DNA of 44,857 nt. Origin: a virus. The first letter of the stretch is position 1. Each line of letters begins with the position of its first letter. The translations under genes were made by a program, and so were the position numbers. Positions 2,399 through 44,857 of the stretch are shown one piece after another. The notes beneath the pieces were generated by a model. The model searched no databases and was not told the DNA's origin. It was given only the letters and a program-made list of their open reading frames with translations. The DNA lies in IMG/VR virus record IMGVR_UViG_3300009012_000003, positions 1-44,857 of that record; one strand, given 5' to 3'.

Positions 2399-2941
2399 CT
2401 ACGACGCAGCCGCTGGCGCAGCTGGCGGTGGCGTGGGCGCCCGGCGCCGCGGCCGCGCAAGCGGCCCGCGCGGCTTGCGCTTGAGCCCCCCGACCTCCGC
2501 CACGAGCGCCTGCGCCCGCGCCTCCAGCTCGCGCCTAATCGCGCCCACCACGATCCGGCGCGCCTCCCCCAGCTCGCGCTCGGTCAGCGCGAACGCGCTA
2601 CCGTGCCAGAAGCCCCTGCCGTCGCTCAGGCCAACGTGCTCCATGGCGGTGACGCCCTGCAGTGCTGTCGTGGTCGGCGCGATCGTCCCGGTTGGCCCAC
2701 CCCCCACACCCCCACCCCCCAACCGCTCCATCGCTTGCTCGTCCACAGCGTTGTCCGCAACCGGCGCCGTGAGCTGCGCGCGCGCCTCCCCCGGTACCTC
2801 GATCCGCCCCGGCTCCAGCTCGCTCCACTGCGGTACCACGGGGCTGCCATGCTCATCCACGTACCCCACAGCGGGTGGCCCCGTCGTGCGCCCCTCATGC
2901 TGGTTGATCAGATCTATCGTTTGCAGCGGTGTCAGTCCCAT
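2399..2941 (-). CDS. Hypothetical protein, Gly-rich centre, basic Pro/Ala-rich tail
   Basis: 180-aa ORF with balanced composition. GGAGG lies 7 nt upstream of ATG 2941. The stop lies 1 nt before the polymerase GTG. Confidence 0.6.
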   Translation of the reverse strand: MGLTPLQTIDLINQHEGRTTGPPAVGYVDEHGSPVVPQWSELEPGRIEVPGEARAQLTAPVADNAVDEQAMERLGGGGVGGGPTGTIAPTTTALQGVTAMEHVGLSDGRGFWHGSAFALTERELGEARRIVVGAIRRELEARAQALVAEVGGLKRKPRGPLARPRRRAPTPPPAAPAAAS

Positions 2942-3410
2942 GCGTCACCTCCATGATCCACGCGGCCATTGTCCCAGGTTCTAGACCAGTTAGTAGCTGC
3001 GGTAGGCTAGCCGGCGTCGGGTGCCACCCTGGATTGTGATAATGCCTGCCATGCGCAATCATCCACCGATTGCGCAGCTCCTGCAGCATGCACGCTGGCC
3101 ACGGCCAGCGGTAACCAGCGTGCGTCCACACATCCCCCGGCATCGGTTGCGCCTGCGCCGGCGCATCGTCGGGGTCCCAGTGGAAGTCCGGCACAGTACC
3201 TGCCGCCACCGCATGGCAATAGTCAACATGATCTCCATGCCACAAGCGCAGGTGCAGCGGTAGATCCCCGTACCCGCGCCACGCGCGCCTGCACATCCTG
3301 CAGTTTTTGCGATACCCGCTTCCATCGTGCACGCGTTTGAACCACGCCACCGTCTGCTGCACCGCGGTCAGCACCACCCCGAGCAGCAAAATCTGCGTCC
3401 CGACGCTCAC
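2895..3410 (-). CDS. Membrane-anchored Cys/His/Trp-rich protein
   Basis: GTG 3410 overlaps the upstream stop (GTGA). N-terminal hydrophobic helix GTQILLLGVVLTAVQQTVAWF. CRMCRR and HLRLWHGDHVDYCH clusters. Confidence 0.55.
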   Translation of the reverse strand: MSVGTQILLLGVVLTAVQQTVAWFKRVHDGSGYRKNCRMCRRAWRGYGDLPLHLRLWHGDHVDYCHAVAAGTVPDFHWDPDDAPAQAQPMPGDVWTHAGYRWPWPACMLQELRNRWMIAHGRHYHNPGWHPTPASLPQLLTGLEPGTMAAWIMEVTHGTDTAANDRSDQPA

Positions 3411-4528
3411 GCCAGCTCTGTCCACGGAATCCACGCCGGCGGTACCAGCGCCGAGTTGCCGCCCACGCGCACCACCAATACGCGCTTGCTGGGCCGCTGT
3501 GGTGGCCACGCCGTCTCACAGTCCGTCACTACGAACACGCAATCACATGGCTGCCGGCACGCCCACGCAATGGCCCCTGCCATGTCGGTCCCACCCCCGG
3601 TGTACTTGAGTTTCGCCAGGTCGCGCGCGCTGCGCACCGCCTGCCGCACATGCAACACGGTGTCCCACGCCGCCACGTCCACGCGCGCACCCACGCTGCG
3701 CACCACGCTGAGCACCGCCTGCGTTGCCGCTGCGAGATGCTCTTCCATGCTGCCGCTGACATCCAGCACGCACAGTGCCCGCAGCGGATGCGCCACCATC
3801 GCCGGCAGCACCACGCCCGCCGCAGCCTGCTGGCGCCGGCTGGGGCGCCCGAACGCATAGTCCTGCACCCCACGCGCCGTCAGCGCTCCCTGCATCGCCG
3901 CAATCATGCCGCTGCGCTTGCCAATCCCCAGAATGCGCAACGCCTCGTCGCGCATGCCCGGGTCCACGCCGGCCGCATTACCACGCACAATCTCGTGCGC
4001 ACTCTCGACGCGCGCGTCGTGCCGCTCCCGCTGCGCCTGCTCGCTGTCCACACCGCCCGCGGCGTGATTCCCGCACGGCTTGCCCACAGCGAACAGTTTG
4101 GGCAGCCGCGGGTAATACCACTCCGCGAGCATCCGATCTTGCAACCCAAACGTTGTCGGCGTCAGGCACTGCGGTGGTCGCACGTACTGCGCAATCTCCA
4201 GATCATGCGCTACGTTCCACGCCAGCGCTTGCCGCCCCAGCTGTCGCTCCCAGTACCCTAGAAACACATGCAGCGCCTCGTGCTTGATAACTTGGATGAG
4301 CGCTTGCTGCACACCATCGACTGCTCCCGTGCGCCCAACCAGCTGCTCCACGAACTTGGGATTAACGAGTATGCCAAGGTCCGGCAGCGTCCCGAACGTC
4401 TCCACCTGCTCGCTCAACCGTGGCTTGAGCCGCAAAATAATGGGCGCCATGTAGGGCAGATCGCGTGCAGCATGCACCTGCGCTAGCCACATGTTGCGCA
4501 GTACGTTTGAACTAGAGAGCTGCTTCAC
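3407..4528 (-). CDS. VWA-domain protein with N-terminal HExxH metallopeptidase-like domain (DUF2201-like architecture)
   Basis: MIDAS-type motifs VLDVSGSM, GGGTD, VVTDCET in the C-terminal half. VIKHEALHVF in the N-terminal half. GTG start overlaps the stop of the 41-aa ORF (GTGA). Confidence 0.8.
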   Translation of the reverse strand: MKQLSSSNVLRNMWLAQVHAARDLPYMAPIILRLKPRLSEQVETFGTLPDLGILVNPKFVEQLVGRTGAVDGVQQALIQVIKHEALHVFLGYWERQLGRQALAWNVAHDLEIAQYVRPPQCLTPTTFGLQDRMLAEWYYPRLPKLFAVGKPCGNHAAGGVDSEQAQRERHDARVESAHEIVRGNAAGVDPGMRDEALRILGIGKRSGMIAAMQGALTARGVQDYAFGRPSRRQQAAAGVVLPAMVAHPLRALCVLDVSGSMEEHLAAATQAVLSVVRSVGARVDVAAWDTVLHVRQAVRSARDLAKLKYTGGGTDMAGAIAWACRQPCDCVFVVTDCETAWPPQRPSKRVLVVRVGGNSALVPPAWIPWTELA

Positions 4529-4650
4529 TGGCGCCCCCGCCGGCGCTCAAGCCAATCAAACACCTTGTCGCACCCACTCCAGATCCACCATCCCATGGTG
4601 AGCCCGCAGCCGTAGGCCCAGATCAACCACACCCACGCGACCTGCTTCAT
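4525..4650 (-). CDS. 41-aa Trp-rich single-pass membrane peptide (absent from ORF track, below length cut-off)
   Basis: Hand translation: MKQVAWVWLIWAYGCGLTMGWWIWSGCDKVFDWLERRRGRQ. The ATG overlaps the AAA+ stop (ATGA) and the stop overlaps the VWA start (GTGA). G/C-rich third codon positions. Confidence 0.6.
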   Translation of the reverse strand: MKQVAWVWLIWAYGCGLTMGWWIWSGCDKVFDWLERRRGRQ

Positions 4651-5768
4651 GGCTTACCCGCCGGTCGCTTGCCGTGCGGCGCCGCAAGCGGCGCATCCGC
4701 CGTCAGCTGCGCCAGCACCTCGAACACCCGCCGCTGCGTATCCGTAATTGGCAGCCGTGACAGCGCCTGCTGATGGCTGCCGAGCGTGGTATACACAACC
4801 GGCGCATGCAGCACGCACAGCACCTCCGCCACCTGCCACAGCGTGTCCGGCTCGGCCCCGCTCAGCACGCGCTCCACCGCCCGCTGCAGCATTCGTCGTG
4901 CCATGTCCGGGTCCACGATCTCGTGCAGATTGACACCCACGCTCTGATCCCGTCGCGCCTGCTGCCACGCCACCGTCTCGCCCTGGCCCACACACCCCGC
5001 CACGAGCACGCCTTCCAGCTCCGGCAGCTGCGCCACCTGACACAGCGCCGCAAGCTTGAGCGCATTGTGCCACGCGCGCGGACTTGCAAACGCCCCCGGC
5101 GCAGGCTTACCGTACAGCTCACTGGTTTGCATCACGCTGCGCGCTTCGCGCACCAGCTCGCGAAATGCCTTCGCGTACGCATCCGCATCATGCACCAGCA
5201 GCGCCTCGCCCTCCGCGAGTGTCGTCCCCTCCAAGTACTGCGTCCACGCCGCCACATCCGGCCCCGCGATCTTGAGGTGCACAAACCGGTTCGCAAACGC
5301 GGGCGCCAGTTCCCACCCGTTCGCCGCATCATCCACCGCATTCATTGCCGCCACGATCCGCACTTCCGGCCCCAGTGCCAGCTCCCCCACCACGCGATCC
5401 AGTACCACGCGCAGCAACGCAGCCTGCGTTGCCGGCGCCGCCGTATTCACCTCGTCCAAGAACAGCACACCCGCGCGCCCCGCCAACCGGCGCGCCCACT
5501 CCGGCGGCGCCAGCCTGACACCGCCCTCCACCACGAGCGGCAGCCCCGCAAAGTCCGTGGGCTCGCGCAAGCTCGCAACCACCACCTCACACGCCAATCC
5601 GGCCGCGCGCGCCACCTGCGTCACGAGGCTGGTCTTGCCAATCCCCGGCGGCCCTTCCAGCAGCAGCGGTGGCATGTCCGCGCGCGCCCACACCAGCCGC
5701 AGCACCGTGCGTGCCGCTGCCAGGCTCAAGTTCCCTTCCACCGCGTTCGGGACCGCGGTAGTACTCAT
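4647..5768 (-). CDS. MoxR/CbbQ/NorQ-type AAA+ ATPase (AAA_5-like)
   Basis: Walker A LEGPPGIGKTS, Walker B VLFLDEVN, sensor-1 IVAAMN, ANRF arginine region. GGAGG lies 6 nt upstream of ATG 5768, which is preferred over 5819. Confidence 0.85.
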   Translation of the reverse strand: MSTTAVPNAVEGNLSLAAARTVLRLVWARADMPPLLLEGPPGIGKTSLVTQVARAAGLACEVVVASLREPTDFAGLPLVVEGGVRLAPPEWARRLAGRAGVLFLDEVNTAAPATQAALLRVVLDRVVGELALGPEVRIVAAMNAVDDAANGWELAPAFANRFVHLKIAGPDVAAWTQYLEGTTLAEGEALLVHDADAYAKAFRELVREARSVMQTSELYGKPAPGAFASPRAWHNALKLAALCQVAQLPELEGVLVAGCVGQGETVAWQQARRDQSVGVNLHEIVDPDMARRMLQRAVERVLSGAEPDTLWQVAEVLCVLHAPVVYTTLGSHQQALSRLPITDTQRRVFEVLAQLTADAPLAAPHGKRPAGKP

Positions 5769-5828: not shown

Positions 5829-6344
5829 CTAGCCGCGCTTGAAGCCATTCATGTTGAACCGCGCCGTCTCGGGGTCCACCTTGTCGCTCTTGATGCTGAT
5901 GCGCGCCACGACGACACGCCCATCCAGCATAGCAACGTTCATCCCGCTGAATGCCTGCAGCAGCCCCTGCGTGATGTCCAGATCAATGGCCTTCGCCAGC
6001 TCCAGCAGCGTGCGCACGCTGATCTTGCTGGGCTCATCGTCCGCCATTGCCGCACGTGACTGCAAGCTGGCCTTTGTGATCCAAAACGAGTACCTGAACT
6101 CCTGCAGCGCATTCTCCCGGCTGCCGTTGTCCGCCACCTTGAAGCTCACTTCCACCACCAGCTTCCCCTCTGGCAGCTTGGTCGCCGGCCCGCCCACGTT
6201 CACATTCGCACCCATGATCTTGATGGGCTCGGTCCACCGTACCGTCTGCCCCGGCTTCCACCCACCCGGCGGCTTGAGCGGCAGCTGCGACTGCACTTCC
6301 TGCATCACGTCCGGTGCGATATACAGATCACTGAAGTCTGTCAC
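5829..6344 (-). CDS. Hypothetical protein; position suggests a DUF669-like ssDNA-binding partner of the Sak4-like ATPase
   Basis: 171-aa ORF. GTG 6344 overlaps the upstream stop (GTGA). The function guess rests on synteny only. Confidence 0.55.
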   Translation of the reverse strand: MTDFSDLYIAPDVMQEVQSQLPLKPPGGWKPGQTVRWTEPIKIMGANVNVGGPATKLPEGKLVVEVSFKVADNGSRENALQEFRYSFWITKASLQSRAAMADDEPSKISVRTLLELAKAIDLDITQGLLQAFSGMNVAMLDGRVVVARISIKSDKVDPETARFNMNGFKRG

Positions 6345-6544
6345 TGTGACACCCCCTTCTTGATAGAATACAACGCGTCGAAATCCGGCAACCGCGTATC
6401 CAGATCAACACCCAGCTCTGCAAGAATCGCCGCTACCGCAGAGCCAACCAGCGCTTGACTCACCTTGGGATCGTTGGCTAGGATCAATCCCTGCAGCAAC
6501 TTGCGATACGTCAGCTTCCCCTCACGCACCAGCTCGTGGCTCAT
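6341..6544 (-). CDS. Hypothetical small protein (67 aa)
   Basis: ATG 6544 overlaps the stop of the upstream ATPase gene (ATGA). Begins MSHELVREGKL. Confidence 0.55.
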   Translation of the reverse strand: MSHELVREGKLTYRKLLQGLILANDPKVSQALVGSAVAAILAELGVDLDTRLPDFDALYSIKKGVSQ

Positions 6545-7386
6545 GGCGCCACCGGCGCCGGCGGCCACAGCATCGCCGGCTGCTGTCGCGCCAGCTCGCG
6601 GCGCGCCTCCTGAATCTTGGTAAACGCGACCCAGAACTTCTCCGGCGCCCCCGTCACATCCGTCACCGGGATCGGATTCGCGAGCGCCCCGGTCGGCATC
6701 TTGGCGCTCCAGAAGCCGTGATTCGCAGTGTGCACGAAGTACCGCATCCCCTTGCCGTCCGACTCACGCCGCAGGTAGAACACGTGATCAAACTCCCCCG
6801 CGATGTCCTTCGACATGGTCATGTTGACGGTCGCCGGTCCGCCATACAGCCCACCCGGCTCACCCGACTGCGGCTCCTGCCAGTCGGACCAGAACAACGC
6901 AATCACATTCAGCCGGCTGGCCTTAATCTTGGTAACTACGTTATTGATCATGGTGTGCGTGACGCCATAATGCGGCTTGTCGGGCATGCCGAACGCATAC
7001 GCGCCGGTGCCGATCGACTTCTTGCCATACAAGCTCGACTGGGCCGCGGCGTACAACACCTGTCGACTCAAGCTCGTGACGGTATCAAGAATGATCGTGT
7101 TACACCCCGCCGGCGCTTTCCAGTCCAGACACTCCATGGCGAACGTATACGGGTCGTATGCCCCATCCGCTGGTGCCATGACGTGTAGCCGCGCATGATG
7201 CTCCGGCAGCACGCCCAGTAGGCTGCGCTCTTTCATGTCGAACGGCACGTACGCCGCACTCTCACCCCAGATCTCGCTGCCCCACGGCAAGCTAGTCGCA
7301 AGCGTAGTCTTACCGTCCCCCGGATTACTGTGCAGCAGAATCTTGTACGGCTGCGCGATGATCTCACCCGGCGTCAGGATCTTCAT
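6541..7386 (-). CDS. Sak4-like / AAA_24 RecA-fold ATPase (recombination-replication)
   Basis: MKILTPG..., Walker A NPGDGKTT, Walker B IILDTV. GGAGG lies upstream of ATG 7386. The N-terminal 46 aa of the track ORF look non-coding. Confidence 0.75.
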   Translation of the reverse strand: MKILTPGEIIAQPYKILLHSNPGDGKTTLATSLPWGSEIWGESAAYVPFDMKERSLLGVLPEHHARLHVMAPADGAYDPYTFAMECLDWKAPAGCNTIILDTVTSLSRQVLYAAAQSSLYGKKSIGTGAYAFGMPDKPHYGVTHTMINNVVTKIKASRLNVIALFWSDWQEPQSGEPGGLYGGPATVNMTMSKDIAGEFDHVFYLRRESDGKGMRYFVHTANHGFWSAKMPTGALANPIPVTDVTGAPEKFWVAFTKIQEARRELARQQPAMLWPPAPVAP

Positions 7387-7532
7387 GACTTGCCTCCCCA
7401 GCACTTGCTCCAGCGCTCTAGCGGCGGGCGCAGCAGCTTGACCGCGTAGCCGACCACACCCACCACCGCCAGCGCGTACGCCGCAACGCCCAGTACCAGC
7501 AGTGCCAGCAATCCCAGCACCCACGCGCTCAT
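7383..7532 (-). CDS. Small membrane protein (49 aa)
   Basis: MSAWVLGLLALLVLGVAAYALAVVGVVGYAV... ATGA overlaps at both ends (7529-7532 and 7383-7386). Confidence 0.55.
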   Translation of the reverse strand: MSAWVLGLLALLVLGVAAYALAVVGVVGYAVKLLRPPLERWSKCWGGKS

Positions 7533-8074
7533 TTCGACAGCTCCATGTTCAAGATCACGCTCTTGACCGCGAGCGGCTGGTCCGAGATGTGCACGATCTG
7601 CCCGCCCGACAAGTAATGCTGATGATACACACCCTTCGCGTCCCACCAGTACAGGTAATCACCCGAAGCGCCATACGTTCCATCATCACCCAGTACCTCG
7701 TCCGTGTAGTACGTATTATCGCCAATAACGAGCGGGAAACCCCACGCACTCTCATGCCCATTGATCGCACTGGGCGTCAGCCGCTTGCCGCCTGACGTGA
7801 CCTTGCCGCGCACCGTTGAGTAAATCAGCACCTGCCCTGAGTACGCGCTAATCACATACAGATGCTTGATCGCGCCCGGCTTGTTGTCCGCAAGCAACCT
7901 GTCGTGAATGTTCTGCTGCTCGATCGTGAGACCCGCGCTGTTGGTCGGCACCGCAACCTGCGCCCGCGCGAGTCCCGATGCCGACAGCTGCCGCGGCGCC
8001 TGGTCGCACCCCGCAATCACCAGCAACGCAATCCCCACTGCTCCTACCGCTGCCGCCAGCCAGCGCATGCTCAT
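7529..8074 (-). CDS. Lipoprotein (181 aa)
   Basis: Signal peptide with lipobox LVIAGC (MSMRWLAAAVGAVGIALLVIAGCDQ). ATGA overlap with the upstream gene. Confidence 0.7.
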   Translation of the reverse strand: MSMRWLAAAVGAVGIALLVIAGCDQAPRQLSASGLARAQVAVPTNSAGLTIEQQNIHDRLLADNKPGAIKHLYVISAYSGQVLIYSTVRGKVTSGGKRLTPSAINGHESAWGFPLVIGDNTYYTDEVLGDDGTYGASGDYLYWWDAKGVYHQHYLSGGQIVHISDQPLAVKSVILNMELSK

Positions 8075-8523
8075 TCCTCCACGTATGGTTTGAACTCCCG
8101 CGGCAGCGGCTCAGTCGCCCCCTGGGGCAGCATGCCGCGGTTGGTGAACCGCCAGTTCCACTTGGCCATCTGCGCGTTATAGTCCGCCGCCAGCGTGTTG
8201 TAACTGGCGCGCACTCCCGCCACCTCCGACTGCCAGATCGCCCACTGCTCCCGGTCATCGCGCGCCCACGCGCTGCGCGGCTTGCCGGCATAACTCGCTT
8301 CCAGCTGCTCGAACCGCTTAGCGTACACGCTGACCGTCGCGCGTTTCTGGTCTAGCTGCGCCGCTGCATCCTTGAACCACTCATAGCGCCGCTGCAGCTC
8401 GGCGGGATCAAGCTGCGCACTCACGACGCTGACCGCGCGATGTGCAAACGCGAGCGGCCACAGCACCACGCGCGCCACCAGTCCAAACATGAGCAGCACG
8501 AACACCAACAGCGCCCACTTCAT
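8071..8523 (-). CDS. N-terminally anchored membrane protein, weak LemA-like flavour
   Basis: TM helix MKWALLVFVLLMFGLVARVVLWPLAF followed by a helical region. YNTLAADYNAQMAKWNWRFTN recalls the LemA YN..V..YN motif. ATGA overlap with the nuclease gene. Confidence 0.6.
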   Translation of the reverse strand: MKWALLVFVLLMFGLVARVVLWPLAFAHRAVSVVSAQLDPAELQRRYEWFKDAAAQLDQKRATVSVYAKRFEQLEASYAGKPRSAWARDDREQWAIWQSEVAGVRASYNTLAADYNAQMAKWNWRFTNRGMLPQGATEPLPREFKPYVEE

Positions 8524-10737: not shown

Positions 10738-10950
10738 CTAGTCATGCGCCCGCGGCCGGAACACGCCTCGATACCACGCACGCCTGCAATTCCGCGAGCA
10801 AAAGAAGTGATACCGCTGGTGCGCACTGAACTTGACGCCGCACGTTGCGCACACGCGCTTGTGCTCGCCGCCCACGAACGTCTTGATGGCGCCCGCGATC
10901 TGCACCGCGATCGTCTGATCACGCAGCTTGAGCAACGTCCCGCGCGTCAT
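10738..10950 (-). CDS. Small zinc-ribbon protein
   Basis: CATCG...FFCSRNCR Cys pairs. ATGA overlap with the upstream gene. Confidence 0.6.
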   Translation of the reverse strand: MTRGTLLKLRDQTIAVQIAGAIKTFVGGEHKRVCATCGVKFSAHQRYHFFCSRNCRRAWYRGVFRPRAHD

Positions 10951-11141
10951 GGCCGGTTGGGACGCGGATGCGCCTCGTCCCAGCTCACATCGGCAACCTC
11001 GAAATCCTCTTCATCCTCGTGAGACGCAGTCTCACCCCGCATGACGCCCAGACAGTAATCCGAGCACACGGGCACTCCGTAGCGCGTGGTGTTCCCGTCG
11101 CACACGCTGCCGCACACGAAGCACGTCGCGGGCGCGCTCAT
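10947..11141 (-). CDS. Small Cys-rich protein with acidic tail
   Basis: CFVCGSVC...VCSDYC. ATGA overlaps at both ends. Confidence 0.6.
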   Translation of the reverse strand: MSAPATCFVCGSVCDGNTTRYGVPVCSDYCLGVMRGETASHEDEEDFEVADVSWDEAHPRPNRP

Positions 11142-11596
11142 GCGCCCTCCGCGAACCTGCCGACCAGCTTCGCGAGATGGTGCTTGACGATGCGCTTGTG
11201 GCCACGCTTGTCACCATATCCACGCGTACCGCTACTACCGCCATGCGACCGCGTCTTCGCAATGCACCGCGGCGCCGGCGCCATGAGCTCCGGAAATCCG
11301 CCCACATCAAACTTGCGCACAAACGTTGCCACGTTGTCGGGCGTGCGCACTTGCTGCACCCCCTGTGGCGTCCGCCGCGCAATGTACTTGCGCCCGATCA
11401 CGAACGTGCCCGTTCCAATCCCTGCCATCAGCAGCGCGAGCGGGCACTTGGTGGTCGTGCCGGTGCGCCCCTTGATGTGTGCGCGCCGCACCATGTCCGC
11501 GATCTGCACTGGTGTCTTGTTGCGGAAGTGCGCCAGCACGTCCTCCAGCACATTGACGCGCGCGATCTTGCCAGGCCCCGCCACGCCGCGGCTCAC
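11138..11596 (-). CDS. Hypothetical protein (152 aa)
   Basis: GTG 11596 overlaps the upstream stop (GTGA). Balanced composition. Confidence 0.55.
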   Translation of the reverse strand: MSRGVAGPGKIARVNVLEDVLAHFRNKTPVQIADMVRRAHIKGRTGTTTKCPLALLMAGIGTGTFVIGRKYIARRTPQGVQQVRTPDNVATFVRKFDVGGFPELMAPAPRCIAKTRSHGGSSGTRGYGDKRGHKRIVKHHLAKLVGRFAEGA

Positions 11597-14062: not shown

Positions 14063-15070
14063 CTACCGCCTACACTCCACGAGCACCGCATTCAGCACGC
14101 TGGCCTTGAGGCTCGCAATGCGCCCGTCCTTCATGCTTGCGAGCCGCAACATGGCGTCGCCGCGCACCGGGAACGTATCCACGTCATGATCTAGGCACTC
14201 CACGGCGCCGTTGTAGGCCTCCCACGCGCTGTGATCGCCCACGTGTCCAGCTCCCTGCTCCCACGCGCCTGCGACCGTTATACGGCGATCTAGCGCACGC
14301 TGCTTAACAAACCCCTGCGCATCGCTCGCCGGTAGCGGCGCCAGTGTGTCGAGCACGCTCCGCTCGAACGCCTCGACGCTCAACACCGTCTTGCGCATGA
14401 GCTTGTAGTCTTGCGCTATCGCAACGTAGCGCTCCGTCAGCTTGCGGAACATCTCCTGCGCCGCTTCGACCATGCGGCTCGCTCCGTCGCCCGTGTGTTT
14501 GACGTACACACCTCCCTCAGCGGCATGCGCAGCGCCCAGCGTGTTTGCGCACACAACACGGATGGGCGTCTCCTGAATTCGCGCTGCGCGCCGTGCGCTA
14601 TGGTTGTTGCTGATAAGCGCATAGGGCACTACCTCGTTTGCGAACACTTCCCTCACGACGGGATCGTCCACGTCAAACCGCGCGAGCATCCACACGTCCG
14701 CTCCCTCGCGCAGCGTACCGCCCGTTTCGAGGTGCGCAATCCCGCGCTCCAGCAACGGCTCCAGCACGCGGAACGCGTCCCAGTTCTGGAGCGGCTTGTA
14801 GCGCTCCCCCGTGACGGCGAACACGCTGCCCGTGTCGGCACGCGATATCGCCTGCCCAGGCGCCAGTTCGTACGTGACGCTATCAGCGCTGCCGCGCTTG
14901 ACATACAGCGGCTCTGTGCGCACGTGGAAGTCCGCCGCCGCAAGCTTGACCGCTTCGTTGAGCGTCGGCGCCTGCGCTAAGCCAACGCCCAGTTCATGCC
15001 ACGGCGTCTCGCCCACGTAGAACATGCTGCCGCGACCATCGTTCGCGCTCTCAATCAGTTCGTGACTCAT
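14063..15070 (-). CDS. DUF932-like (phage/plasmid-like protein family) protein
   Basis: The N-terminus MSHELIESANDGRGSMFYVGETPWHELG matches the conserved start of that family as I remember it. 335 aa. Confidence 0.65.
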   Translation of the reverse strand: MSHELIESANDGRGSMFYVGETPWHELGVGLAQAPTLNEAVKLAAADFHVRTEPLYVKRGSADSVTYELAPGQAISRADTGSVFAVTGERYKPLQNWDAFRVLEPLLERGIAHLETGGTLREGADVWMLARFDVDDPVVREVFANEVVPYALISNNHSARRAARIQETPIRVVCANTLGAAHAAEGGVYVKHTGDGASRMVEAAQEMFRKLTERYVAIAQDYKLMRKTVLSVEAFERSVLDTLAPLPASDAQGFVKQRALDRRITVAGAWEQGAGHVGDHSAWEAYNGAVECLDHDVDTFPVRGDAMLRLASMKDGRIASLKASVLNAVLVECRR

Positions 15071-21744: not shown

Positions 21745-22298
21745 GTCGCGCAGCGTACCTGGTCAGCAACACGGCACCGATCGACCTAGCTGCCGTGCGC
21801 ACCGCCATGCCGCCCCCGGAGGTGCTGGCGTGGTGCGACGGTGACGGCGCCGGCGACTACCAGCCGTTATGGGCACTGACGTGCGCCCTCGCTCCGCGCA
21901 CGATCGTCGAGTTGGGCACGCGTGACGCCCGCAGCACGCGCGTGGTCGCCCACGCCGCACCGCAAGCGGCGTTGACGACCATCGACATCGCAGATTGCAG
22001 CGCCGTCGTCCCCGCGGGCGCCACCTTCGTCCACGCTGACGCCGCCAGCGCGTTTGGCGCTTGGCGCGACCCGATCGACCTGCTGTTCGTGGACACCGAC
22101 CCCCACAGCGCGCTCCAGACCACGGGCTGGCTCAACACGTGGGTCGCGCGGTTCGCTCGCGCCGCCGCATGGCACGACAGCCTGACGACGCCGGTGGGCG
22201 CAGCGCTGGTCACGTGGCTCGCGCACCACCCTGAGTGGTCCGGCGCCGAACTAGGCACAAACCACGGCATGTATCTGATGTGGCGGCACACGCCATGA
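21741..22298 (+). CDS. Class I SAM-dependent methyltransferase (Methyltransf_24/CmcI-like)
   Basis: Motif I IVELGTRDARST, LTTIDI, motif IV DLLFVDTDPH, terminal WHD. ATGA overlaps at both ends. Confidence 0.65.
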   Translation: MSRAAYLVSNTAPIDLAAVRTAMPPPEVLAWCDGDGAGDYQPLWALTCALAPRTIVELGTRDARSTRVVAHAAPQAALTTIDIADCSAVVPAGATFVHADAASAFGAWRDPIDLLFVDTDPHSALQTTGWLNTWVARFARAAAWHDSLTTPVGAALVTWLAHHPEWSGAELGTNHGMYLMWRHTP

Positions 22299-24280
22299 GC
22301 GCAACGTTCTCGCAAACCGCCAACGCCACACGCGCAACGCTGGACGCCAATTCGCTCGTGGGGCTCGTGCGCGAGCGCAAAGCCCACAGCGAGCGCACGT
22401 TCCTCGCATACTACAACAAGTTGGCGAGGTGGTACGACCGCTACCGTGGCATCTACAGCGGCAAGTTCGCAGCGTTCCGCAACAACATTCACATACCATT
22501 CATATATAGCGTGATCCAGTCGGACGTGGCGCGCAAGATCCAGATGTCGCTCGGCAACTGGCCCTTGATCAGCTTCGAGGGCTATCCGCCGGAGCAGGAG
22601 CCCACCGCCCGCAAGAACGAGATCCTGGTCAGCGTGCAGTGGGAAGACTTGCACATGTACTTGAAAGCCGTGGACTTCCTGACCACGCTCGACCTGTACG
22701 GCGTTGCGATCATGCGCTGGGGCTGGAAGCGCGACTTGCGCCAGCAGCGCGTGCGCGAGCCGCTGCCGGTAGCGCCCGGCTTGACGTTCGAGCGCACGGT
22801 CCAGCGCTGGCAGACCTACTTTGACGGTCCCGACGGGTACGTGGTCGATCCACTCGACTTCTTCCCGCAGCCGGGCTTCCGCCACCCCGACGACATGGCG
22901 TGGGCGGTTGAGCGCTACTGGCGTGATCTGGACGACATGCGCGCGCAAGTGCGTGCCGAGCAAGCCGCCGGTACGCCACGCGAAGAGCTGAGCTTCGATC
23001 CGCGCGCACTCGAAGACCTGGCGCTAACCGGGAGCGAGAGCGATGCCGGCAGTCGCCTGATCGAGCGCATCAGCGTCTACCGCAACGCCACCGACTTCCA
23101 GATCCGCAAGGGCGAGAAGTACGCGAAGCCGGTCGAGGTGTGGGACCACTGGGGCACAGTGCCGGACGAGCTGCTGCCGGCGGACGGTGAGCGCATGCGC
23201 CGGCTCGTGGTACTGAACGGGCGCGTACTCGCAAAGAACGTGGGCAACCCCTACTGGCACGGGCAAAAGCCGTGGACGACCTGTGCCATCGGCGATCCGC
23301 ACTACTTTCACGGCGTCGGCAAAAGCGAGCTTTTGGAGAAACTGCAGGCCGCGAGCAACCGCCTGCTCAACCACAAGCTCGACTCGCTGGACTTGTCGAT
23401 CTCGCCCGTGTTCCTCGCGAACAGTTCAATCGTCCAGGCGCAGAACCTGGTCACGCAGCCGGGGCGCATCATCTCGATCGACGGACCCGTGGGCGAGGAC
23501 GTGATCCGGCCGCTGCTGATTGATCGAACGGGCATCCAGCAGGTCGGCCCCGAGGTCGAGCTGCTGTGGCGCTACATGCAGCAGGGCAGCGGGATCGTGG
23601 AGGACACGGTGCAGGGCGGCGCCAGCTCGCGTCAGACGGCGCACGAGTTCCAAGGTCGCCAAGAAGCCGTTATGACGCGCCTGATGAGCGAGTCGCGCCA
23701 GCTCGAAGAGGGCTGGCTTGAGCCCAGTGCCAACCTGTGCCGTGCCTTGAACCGCCAATTCTTGACGGTGCCGAAGCAGATCAACATGCTTGGTTCGCTC
23801 GCGCGAACCAATCCGATCACCGGTGCGCCGCTGCCGCCCGACACGCTCGCAATCGACCATCATGACCTGTGGCCCGACTACCGGGCGCGCGCCGTGGGCG
23901 CCAACCAGACCATGATGCGCGCCGCGACGCAGCAGAACGTGATCCAGCTGCTGCAAGCCGCATCGGCCAACCCTGCGCTCATGCAACTCATCAACTGGAC
24001 AAACTTTGCGCGCCAGCTCTTGGAAACGTTTGGCTTCCGCAACATCAACGAGATGCTGAACGAGACAGCGCAACAGCAGCAGCTGACGGACGCAACGCAG
24101 GGCGCCGCACGCGCCGGTGTGCCAATCCAGCAGCAGATGCAAGCGTTGTGGCCACAGCAGGGCTTCGCGGGCGGCGGCAACGGCGCCTCCGGCAGCCCTG
24201 AGACGCTCGACCCCGCACACATGATGGCGATGATGGCAGCGAGCGGCGCGCGCCAGCCCATGCTGCCGCTGACGCGGTAG
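22295..24280 (+). CDS. Portal (head-tail connector) protein
   Basis: 661 aa. Lies downstream of terL and upstream of scaffold/capsid. The N-terminal YYNKLARWYDRYRGIY region is typical of podovirus connectors. ATGA start overlap. Confidence 0.75.
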   Translation: MSATFSQTANATRATLDANSLVGLVRERKAHSERTFLAYYNKLARWYDRYRGIYSGKFAAFRNNIHIPFIYSVIQSDVARKIQMSLGNWPLISFEGYPPEQEPTARKNEILVSVQWEDLHMYLKAVDFLTTLDLYGVAIMRWGWKRDLRQQRVREPLPVAPGLTFERTVQRWQTYFDGPDGYVVDPLDFFPQPGFRHPDDMAWAVERYWRDLDDMRAQVRAEQAAGTPREELSFDPRALEDLALTGSESDAGSRLIERISVYRNATDFQIRKGEKYAKPVEVWDHWGTVPDELLPADGERMRRLVVLNGRVLAKNVGNPYWHGQKPWTTCAIGDPHYFHGVGKSELLEKLQAASNRLLNHKLDSLDLSISPVFLANSSIVQAQNLVTQPGRIISIDGPVGEDVIRPLLIDRTGIQQVGPEVELLWRYMQQGSGIVEDTVQGGASSRQTAHEFQGRQEAVMTRLMSESRQLEEGWLEPSANLCRALNRQFLTVPKQINMLGSLARTNPITGAPLPPDTLAIDHHDLWPDYRARAVGANQTMMRAATQQNVIQLLQAASANPALMQLINWTNFARQLLETFGFRNINEMLNETAQQQQLTDATQGAARAGVPIQQQMQALWPQQGFAGGGNGASGSPETLDPAHMMAMMAASGARQPMLPLTR

Positions 24281-25726: not shown

Positions 25727-26719
25727 GTGGCTAACGACACCAACCTCTGGTCAGTCTACGACCTGGGTGGCCCGTTCGCGGGCGGCACCAGCGTGCTCAA
25801 GGAAGATCTCGCTGACGTAGTCATCAATATCGATCCCACCGACACGCCCGGCTGGAGCACGTTCGCCAAGACCGTGGCCAAGAACACCGCCCACGAGTGG
25901 GTCGCAGCCGCCCTGGCCGCAACCTCGACCGCGGGCACCGCAGAGGGTTTCGACTTCACATCCGCGAACCGCACTGCGCGCGTGCGGCTCCAGAACTTGA
26001 CGCAGATCTTCAACGTGCCGGTGATCGTGTCGGACACCGCACGCGCCGTTGACCCTGCCGGCGTGTCCGATGAGTACATGCTGCAGATCATGTACGGCAT
26101 GCAGGAAGAGTCGCGCAACATCGAAGCCGCGCTGTTCAAGGCCGCAACCGCGTCGGCAACGGGCGATGACGCAAGCGCCGCACGCGTCTTGAAGGGCTTC
26201 CGCGGCTTCGTTGGCATGACCGGCACCCCGGCATTCAACATCCAGCAGATCAACGAAGCTGGCAACGCGTCGTTCCTGATCTCAACCGCTAACATCATTA
26301 ACCTGCACGAGACGATGTACACACTGGGTGCCAAGCCCGACTCGCTGTGGTGCAGCCCCGGCGTCAAGGCCGACTTGACGCGTGCATTGGTCGCTGCGGG
26401 CGGCAACTTCCGTCTCAACATCGCAGCCGCCGACAACACGATGATCAACAATATCGAGGTGTTCCACAGCGACTTCGGCGTGCTGCCCATCATCACCGAC
26501 CGGTTCATTCCGCAGGCCACTGGCTTGTCGGCATCGAGCGCCAGTGCTGCCTGGTTCCTGATCGAGCGCAGCAAGGCGCGGCTCGCAGTGCTGCGTCCGA
26601 TGCACCACGTGCCGATGGGAAAGAGTGGCGACCACACGCGCGGCCTGGTCGTGACCGAGCTGACGCTAGAGCTGCAGCATCCCTACGCAGTCGGTGTCGG
26701 TACCGGAGTTGGTACGTAG
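25727..26719 (+). CDS. Major capsid protein
   Basis: 330 aa directly after the scaffold. GGAGA SD before GTG 25727. Composition and size fit HK97-fold capsid proteins. Followed by strong hairpins. Confidence 0.75.
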   Translation: MANDTNLWSVYDLGGPFAGGTSVLKEDLADVVINIDPTDTPGWSTFAKTVAKNTAHEWVAAALAATSTAGTAEGFDFTSANRTARVRLQNLTQIFNVPVIVSDTARAVDPAGVSDEYMLQIMYGMQEESRNIEAALFKAATASATGDDASAARVLKGFRGFVGMTGTPAFNIQQINEAGNASFLISTANIINLHETMYTLGAKPDSLWCSPGVKADLTRALVAAGGNFRLNIAAADNTMINNIEVFHSDFGVLPIITDRFIPQATGLSASSASAAWFLIERSKARLAVLRPMHHVPMGKSGDHTRGLVVTELTLELQHPYAVGVGTGVGT

Positions 26720-44547: not shown

Positions 44548-44816
44548 TAGTGCACCGGCTCGTCGCCGGCATCGTCAGCGCCAGGTGGCACCGTGCCGGC
44601 GTGCATCTCTAGCGCTGCGCGCAGCTCGCGCACCAGCTCCACGTCACTCGCATCATCAGTCGCCACCGCCACTGCCTGCACCGCATCCCCGACCGCGCGC
44701 AGCCCCACGAGCACCAGTGTGCCGGGACGCTCATGGGCGCGCTTCAAGCACGCCACCACGAGCTGGATCGCCTTCTGCTCCAGTGACTTGCGTGACGCGT
44801 TGGCGCGGCGGCTCAC
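44547..44816 (-). CDS. Hypothetical protein (89 aa); its GTG start lies in the terminal duplication
   Basis: GTG 44816 equals position 82 of the left copy. It overlaps the polymerase TGA (79-81) as GTGA once the circle is closed. Confidence 0.55.
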   Translation of the reverse strand: MSRRANASRKSLEQKAIQLVVACLKRAHERPGTLVLVGLRAVGDAVQAVAVATDDASDVELVRELRAALEMHAGTVPPGADDAGDEPVH

Positions 44817-44857
44817 GGCGTCACCTCCGTCATGCTATCCTTGTTCCAGTTCGGACC
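44735..44857. repeat. Terminal direct duplication, right copy (identical to 1..123)
   Basis: Read directly, 123/123 identical. Confidence 0.95.

Follow-up and report, generated by a model that had tools for sequence, protein, structure and literature searches.

Does the four-gene locus at positions 2895–5768 of the virus record IMGVR_UViG_3300009012_000003 encode an undescribed system, or a known gene pair accompanied by two genes private to its lineage? The whole 44,857-nucleotide (nt) record was analysed here and is referred to as the window. On its minus strand, an AAA+ ATPase gene is followed by a 41-amino-acid (aa) open reading frame (ORF), by a gene for a putative peptidase fused to a VWA domain, and by a 171-aa ORF. 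An initial annotation, made from the sequence alone, had read these as a co-translated, membrane-tethered cassette and its best candidate for an undescribed system. All four ORFs, their coordinates and the quoted motifs (including HEALH, DVSGS, GGGTD and TDCE) are present in the sequence, as are the junction overlaps ATGA (4647–4650), GTGA (4525–4528) and GTGA (3407–3410). By sequence comparison, the ATPase and the VWA protein are a divergent member (~22–30% identity) of a known, functionally uncharacterised module typified by gp24/gp25 of coliphage N4. What is already known is the kind of the pair; what is new is a very divergent member of it plus two lineage-specific orphans.

The ATPase gene starts at ATG 5768, with a GGAGG 7 nt upstream, and its translation contains Walker A (GPPGIGKT), Walker B (VLFLDEVN), sensor-1 (IVAAMN, with the core AAMN) and Arg (ANRF) motifs. 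It matches Pfam AAA_5 at 45.4 bits (cut-off 22; E = 1.1e-11), AAA_3, the family of MoxR proper, at 29.7 bits (cut-off 27), and phrog_1297 at 1.2e-36. The closest sequence matches in the PDB are midasin AAA domains (7e-14), and a blastp comparison with the ATPase of phage Presley gives 3e-8. NCBIfam and PADLOC returned only generic P-loop matches for this protein and nothing for the other cassette ORFs. With profiles above threshold and motifs intact, its sequence places it as an ATPase of the MoxR/AAA_5 clade; homologues were found in 75 related loci.

The VWA protein matches DUF2201_N over residues 16–193 (35.3 bits, cut-off 23.2; 1.2e-8) and DUF2201 over residues 254–366 (44.9 bits, cut-off 26.4; 1.5e-11). 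Both families are thus above threshold and in N-to-C order, the arrangement of the COG3864-type ‘predicted metal-dependent peptidase’ with VWA, and phrog_1314 is matched at 1.4e-27. These family matches agree with the proposal that a MoxR-clade AAA+ protein is paired here with a peptidase-VWA protein of DUF2201 type. The family is large (at least 2,302 members at E ≤ 1e-10 in a profile search). In 68 members His83, His87, Asp256, Ser258, Ser260, Thr314 and Asp336, the residues of the HExxH site and of the MIDAS (metal ion-dependent adhesion site), are invariant, and the window protein has all of them; Glu84 and Asp109 are kept in at least 90% of the 68. One gene caller placed the start 12 codons later, giving a protein of 361 aa, with which the GTGA overlap would vanish; the alignment of homologues favours the 373-aa start.

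An AlphaFold2 (AF2) model of the whole VWA protein has a predicted local distance difference test (pLDDT) score of 76, and its top fold matches in the PDB are NorD in the NorQD complex (9qhe) and the MIDAS domain of MDN1. The N-domain modelled alone reached a pLDDT of 85 and a predicted template modelling (pTM) score of 0.83, and shows a three-stranded sheet with HEALH on a helix (residues 70–89) and a further helix after it. Against predicted viral structures, the N-domain model recovered the same family in Pseudomonas phage Zuri, cyanophage S-TIM5 and Bacillus phage PBS1, and also in Klebsiella and Ruegeria N4-like phages and in crAss-like viruses. Kinship of the N-domain with SprT/Wss1-type or other solved zincins was considered and found no support from Foldseek against the PDB.

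We next consider the pair in its relatives. The loci compared were 79 related ones from IMG/VR, plus ENA, NCBI and two cultured phages, and 77 have both genes; the locus scan used a four-sequence VWA alignment, a nine-sequence alignment being too diverse. When the VWA protein and the 171-aa ORF were each scanned singly against IMG/VR, no close relative came up. A tblastn search with the VWA protein gave matches in 34 records, nearly all N4-like phages, in which an ‘N4 gp25-like’ gene comes after an ‘N4 gp24-like’ ATPase gene; the gp25-like matches include Presley, Pollock, SBP1, TR2 and CRP-7. Pairwise comparisons support homology of both partners to the N4-like pairs, and the gene order is the same in Presley and Pollock. 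As in the window, 75 of the 77 loci have both genes on one strand with the ATPase gene upstream; the spacing ranges from –4 to ~3,050 nt, and 19 of the 77 have the two directly adjacent. Pfam families found among 149 neighbouring proteins include DNA_pol_A, DUF5906, AAA_24, PDDEXK, RNR, RecT, ligase, DnaG and ThyX, and none of the 25 commonest neighbour families of the relatives is a structural (virion) family.

In N4-like phages gp24 and gp25 are two of 14 core genes, are transcribed among the middle genes of N4 and have no assigned function (PMC4193335; PMC2784036), and from group 2.2 jumbo phages the pairing of a MoxR AAA+ protein with a vWA domain that has a metallopeptidase joined to its N-terminus is described (Iyer et al. 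2021, PMC7824862). The designation of the locus as an undescribed system does not survive these matches, to the N4 core genes (PMC4193335) on the one hand and to the jumbo-phage architecture (PMC7824862) on the other. The accompanying statement, that the pairing of AAA_5 with a peptidase-VWA protein is widespread and lacks an assigned function, agrees with both. The module is widespread in phages and usually lies among early or middle replication genes.

Three observations concern members of the module elsewhere. In Escherichia phage Pollock (L002, 4136–5924) an HNH homing endonuclease gene interrupts the gp24-like ATPase gene and divides it in two; the C-terminal ATPase piece, under a ‘hypothetical’ label, can still be aligned with the ATPases of Presley and of locus L005. 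In one subclade of related viral contigs, a DUF6744-like protein of ~270–315 aa is encoded directly after the VWA gene (L009 6163–7110, L012 6111–6968, L018 5474–6298, L036 2985–3800, L063 2804–3664 and others). Seven members match DUF6744 among the scanned neighbours, and the protein may be a lineage-specific third partner or client in that subclade. Lastly, gp25-type genes carry the label ‘HNH endonuclease’ in RefSeq (NC_023581.1 14948–15949 and NC_027381.1 13397–14374) and in PHROG 1314; the original GenBank records have ‘metallopeptidase’ or ‘hypothetical’. Because Pfam gives only DUF2201_N/DUF2201, the endonuclease label looks like a propagated mis-annotation.

Do the two small ORFs belong to the module? 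The pair is the only part of the window shared with the related loci. An all-against-all comparison found no homologue of the 41-aa ORF, the 171-aa ORF, the 180-aa ORF or a further upstream 171-aa ORF among the neighbours of the pair in those loci, and recurrent neighbour families of the relatives (DUF6744 and several unnamed families of ~285 aa) were sought in the window and are absent from it. The four-gene order including the 41-aa ORF is accordingly not seen in relatives, where the small ORFs are not kept beside the pair. The variable spacing, the 19 loci with adjacent genes and the split ATPase gene of Pollock indicate that the 41-aa ORF sits in a variable insertion point. Membrane-like ORFs are not enriched in that slot (7/87, compared with 52/915 elsewhere in the same loci; p = 0.34) and number 0/52 in the first downstream slot; ORFs with a CxxC/His zinc motif show no enrichment beside the pair either. 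The junction overlaps had been taken to imply stoichiometric co-translation of the four genes. The same four-base overlaps of start and stop codons run along the whole operon (for example 6341–6344, 8071–8074, 8520–8523, 10947–10950, 11138–11141 and 11593–11596) and therefore do not delimit a four-gene unit. Promoter and terminator scans gave no signal within the cassette, and none above shuffle expectation.

The 41-aa ORF has 7 Trp among its 41 residues and a clear coding signal, with a G+C content at third codon positions (GC3) of 0.86 and codon log-odds of +0.23 and +0.39 against the two other frames. Its 19-residue Wimley–White sum is –14.9, a strong value, and its Kyte–Doolittle maximum is 1.11. 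It forms a singleton cluster, lacks a homologue among the 1.84 billion representative proteins and has no family match in Pfam, PHROG, NCBIfam or PADLOC scans. It is probably a real small membrane protein, its membrane character being predicted from hydropathy. On the minus strand the 41-aa ORF (4640–4650) and the VWA gene (4525–4535) both open with xTGAAGCAG (Met-Lys-Gln), overlapping the preceding stop codon.

The 171-aa ORF returned only itself from a search of 5.8 billion proteins (NCBI, JGI, ENA and Logan), and itself plus two spurious repeat proteins from a HMMER pass over 1.84 billion representatives; Pfam gave no match even at E = 10, and all profiles tried were below significance. Its translation does contain the Cys-His clusters that had been pointed out, CRMC and HLRLWHGDHVDYCH. 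Their arrangement is the classical C2H2 spacing rather than a generic cluster: the pattern C-x2-4-C-x12-H-x3-5-H fits Cys37, Cys40, His53 and His58, together with Trp44 and Leu50. Only over the C2H2 stretch does the ORF weakly match C2H2 fingers of BCL11A and ZBTB7A in the PDB (E 0.03–0.05), and in an exhaustive HMMER search of the 1.84 billion representatives the sole non-self match over that stretch was a C2H2-repeat protein (E 7e-4). The product resembles a protein with one C2H2-type zinc finger and a hydrophobic N-terminus. Its 19-residue Kyte–Doolittle maximum is 1.56, just below the usual 1.6, and the segment includes two Gln; the Lys-Arg that follows would place the finger in the cytoplasm. 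Of the two transmembrane partners that had been proposed, then, the 41-aa peptide scores strongly on the Wimley–White scale and the 171-aa protein is borderline, both by hydropathy only. An unrelated viral contig (L069) has, right behind its VWA gene, a 57-aa ORF (5496–5669) that contains CPLC...HTWHG, loosely like the CRMC...LWHG of the window; with spacings of 14 and 2 residues against 12 and 4, and a TTG start that may not belong to a gene at all, the likeness is probably due to chance.

Whether the 171-aa ORF is a gene over its full length deserves a closer look. Its GC3 is 0.69, compared with ~0.8 in neighbouring genes, and its codon log-odds (+0.20 and +0.11) are positive for the first ~120 codons and equivocal in the final ~50, where they are near zero or negative (51 codons). 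A weak Shine–Dalgarno sequence before its GTG start, a 47-nt overlap with the next gene and the lack of homologues could likewise suit non-coding or decaying sequence that separates the VWA and 180-aa genes, with all of the ORF, or just the C-terminal third of it, not a real gene. We consider this improbable, since no other frame scores better along the ORF and over 3051–3410 it alone scores positive, with its competitors negative. It also leaves no gap in an otherwise gap-free operon, its well-formed C2H2 spacing is unlikely in a random frame, and gene calls on the Logan contigs give the identical product. At 2885–3060, a stretch that spans the 3' third of the 171-aa ORF and its overlap with the 180-aa gene, G+C is ~0.5–0.6 at all codon positions and no frame has a clear coding signal; the sequence may be recently acquired or fast-evolving. 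We conclude that both small ORFs, of 41 and 171 aa, are probably genuine genes, lineage-specific orphans in slots that are variable among relatives.

A single membrane-tethered remodelling machine made of all four products would use the small proteins to anchor the AAA+/VWA-peptidase at the inner membrane, with co-translation setting the stoichiometry. The overlaps at all three cassette junctions and the coding signal in both small ORFs would suit such a machine, as would the N-terminal hydrophobic segment followed by basic residues in both, a topology in which the C-terminal parts would face the cytoplasm. A few relatives, moreover, have small membrane-like ORFs between the ATPase and VWA genes (L028, L035, L086 and perhaps L082). 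Set against this are the lack of any homologue of the small ORFs in protein searches or beside the pair, the 19 relatives with no intervening gene and the unrelated inserts in others, the unenriched neighbours, and overlaps that are a property of the entire operon; with orphans lacking homologues and neighbours unenriched, the four-gene model has no comparative support, and we judge it quite unlikely. The feature that made the cassette look new, four coupled genes of which two encode membrane partners, fails on comparison with relatives, only the AAA+/VWA pair being shared in the 77 loci. A narrower variant, in which the module of this one lineage has gained two partners of its own, a Trp-rich single-pass peptide and a C2H2-type zinc-finger protein anchored in the membrane, that would localise or gate an ATP-driven protease at the inner membrane, is in our estimate a shade less probable still. 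If true, these partners would be the first handle on what the gp24/gp25-type module acts on.

What might the pair do? We favour, as the likely answer, a two-gene MoxR/peptidase-VWA module as in N4 gp24/gp25, which would remodel and cleave a client of the replication phase, with the small ORFs as bystander orphans. By analogy with NorQ/NorD, CbbQ/CbbO, RavA/ViaA and midasin, the ATPase would form a ring on which the VWA domain docks, its MIDAS metal gripping an acidic residue of a specific client. ATP hydrolysis would then remodel the client and present it to the fused peptidase for limited cleavage; the strict conservation of the HExxH site argues that the client is also cut. From the gene position, the client is less likely to be a virion protein than one that is required, or eliminated, during the replication phase. 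The replication and nucleotide-metabolism neighbours, together with the expression of the N4 genes among the middle genes, favour a client of replication or host takeover over a virion protein, and the core-gene status in N4-like phages weakly favours a basic role in the infection cycle over dispensable counter-defence. Several points weigh against this picture. The peptidase assignment is a putative one, resting on the HExxH motif, the Pfam family and a modelled zincin-like topology, and Foldseek found no significant PDB match for the confident N-domain model. Literature searches found no experiment on any member of the peptidase-VWA family. That the orphans are packed tightly against the pair, and have a plausible N-out/C-in topology, is compatible with an interaction. 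The other assemblies of the genome, Logan contigs compared for variation that would reveal selection on the small ORFs, are 100% identical to it, and close relatives of this phage are absent.

The pair could instead be a virion-assembly chaperone and maturation peptidase. Such a role has been proposed in group 2.2 jumbo phages for their MoxR plus metallopeptidase-vWA pair (PMC7824862), a MoxR/VWA pair that lacks the peptidase, p618/p892 of Acidianus two-tailed virus (ATV; cited in PMC7824862 and PMC7911831), has been shown to have an assembly role, and roseophage RPP1 has some of its virion-protein genes close to the gp24/gp25 homologues (PMC4193335). In the window, however, the pair has a Sak4-like AAA_24 gene on one side and the DNA polymerase gene on the other, and the SU10-type portal and capsid genes are on the opposite strand; structural families are missing from the commonest neighbours of relatives, and gp24 and gp25 are middle, not late, N4 transcripts (PMC4193335). 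An assembly role is on balance improbable here. A CobS/CobT-type or other metal chelatase, as in many cyanophages, is hardly credible, although the ATPase has weak matches to phrog_249 (‘porphyrin biosynthesis’, 2e-6) and Mg_chelatase (17.8 bits, under the cut-off of 20.3): phrog_1297 is 30 orders of magnitude better than phrog_249, the VWA protein matches DUF2201/DUF2201_N and no CobT family, its peptidase domain is absent from CobT, and cobalamin genes are absent from the window and from the neighbours of relatives. The initial annotation had held that a CobS/CobT placement would make the pair ordinary; the pair falls in other families, which effectively refutes the chelatase. The MoxR-vWA ternary conflict systems (Kaur et al. 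2020) were also considered and rejected, bpMoxR scoring 20.1 bits, below its cut-off of 27. A third component (beta-propeller, VMAP or FtsH) was sought among the window ORFs and none was found, and PADLOC gave no meaningful match. Origin of the cassette from a known defence system was likewise rejected, because NCBIfam and PADLOC yielded only the generic P-loop matches mentioned above.

The pair thus shares with N4 gp24/gp25 and their Schitoviridae homologues (PHROG 1297/1314) its families, the ATPase-then-VWA order on one strand, a placement among middle or replication genes and the HExxH and MIDAS residues, and both are functionally uncharacterised. It differs from the Schitoviridae proteins in being only ~21–27% identical to them, from N4 gp24/gp25 in having a 41-aa ORF between the two genes and an orphan zinc-finger-like ORF after them, and from N4-like phages in its setting, a 44.7-kb high-GC genome with an SU10-type capsid and portal and without the giant virion RNA polymerase. 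The domain architecture is that of group 2.2 jumbo phages (PMC7824862), and the same fold family occurs in Bacillus phage PBS1 and cyanophage S-TIM5; virion assembly was proposed there, whereas the context in the window and the 77 related loci is replication and nucleotide metabolism. NorQ/NorD, CbbQ/CbbO, RavA/ViaA, CoxD/CoxE and midasin resemble the pair in combining a MoxR/AAA_5-type motor with a VWA-MIDAS partner, and NorD in NorQD and the MDN1 MIDAS domain (for the VWA model) and midasin (for the ATPase) are its top structures, at fold or superfamily level only. Unlike the window protein, the partners in these cellular pairs and in midasin have no zincin peptidase domain, and their clients (NOR, Rubisco, respiratory complexes and pre-60S particles) have no counterpart in the window. 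Cyanophage CobS/CobT is likewise a phage-borne pair of AAA+ and VWA genes, but of other families, with a CobT that has no peptidase domain and a cobalamin context absent from the window. The 171-aa ORF, for its part, has the exact C-x2-C-x3-aromatic-x5-L-x2-H-x4-H spacing of classical C2H2 fingers and differs from them in being a single finger with a hydrophobic N-terminus, below significance in every profile tried.

Few non-structural modules of N4-like phages are as conserved as the MoxR/peptidase-VWA pair, which also occurs in jumbo phages, cyanophages and crAss-like viruses. Its presence in a small, unrelated, high-GC genome of podovirus type, again among replication genes, adds weight to the view that its general role belongs to the replication phase rather than to virion assembly.

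The genes around the pair are listed in Table 1. As the initial annotation had it, the pair sits inside a replication operon: a long, gap-free minus-strand operon runs from position ~18.8 kb down to base 79 and includes a primase/helicase-like gene, AAA_24, the four-ORF cassette, the 180-aa ORF and a family A DNA polymerase gene. Most of the remaining ORFs of this operon had no family match in the profile scans.

Table 1. Coordinates of the cassette and of other annotated features in the window
Feature	Position	Strand	Evidence or remark
AAA+ ATPase of the MoxR/midasin clade, 373 aa	4647–5768	–	Pfam, PHROG, motifs
Trp-rich hydrophobic orphan ORF, 41 aa	4525–4650	–	takes up the AAA+/VWA gap exactly
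Zincin-like peptidase (DUF2201_N) fused to VWA/MIDAS domain (DUF2201), 373 aa	3407–4528	–	N4 gp25-like
HEALH, residues 83–87	4268–4282	–	putative zinc-binding active site
MIDAS DxSxS motif DVSGS, residues 256–260	3749–3763	–	completed by T314 (GGGTD) and D336 (TDCE)
Orphan ORF, 171 aa	2895–3410	–	hydrophobic N-terminal segment (~6–24), C2H2-type spacing, His/Trp-rich tail
C37-x2-C40-x3-W-x5-L-x2-H53-x4-H58	3237–3302	–	classical C2H2 zinc-finger spacing, read from translation
180-aa ORF	2399–2941	–	between cassette and DNA polymerase; strong GGAGG before ATG 2941
Sak4-like AAA_24 gene	6541–7524	–	in minus-strand operon
70-aa ORF with HNH-like zinc motif	10738–10950	–	phrog_1271, 9e-6
DUF932 protein	14063–15070	–	1e-31
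SU10-type portal	22235–24280	+	6e-13
SU10-type major capsid protein	25727–26719	+	1e-58
Complete phage-like genome, ~44.7 kb	1–44,857		circular or terminally redundant

A nucleotide search of the window against 50,697 phage records gave no match, and in the search of 5.8 billion proteins the relatives of this phage were no closer than ~30% identity. The tRNA scan found no tRNA genes in the window. The largest ORF of the genome has 882 aa, and a giant virion RNA polymerase is absent. G+C is 61–70% across the profile windows of the genome. Bases 1–123 are the same as bases 44735–44857 at the other end of the window, and two independent Logan contigs (L006 and L007) cross the end-to-end junction with 100% identity to the window, from which we take the window to be a complete circular or terminally redundant genome. 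It was recovered in several samples, as 5 contigs, the longest of 44,983 nt.

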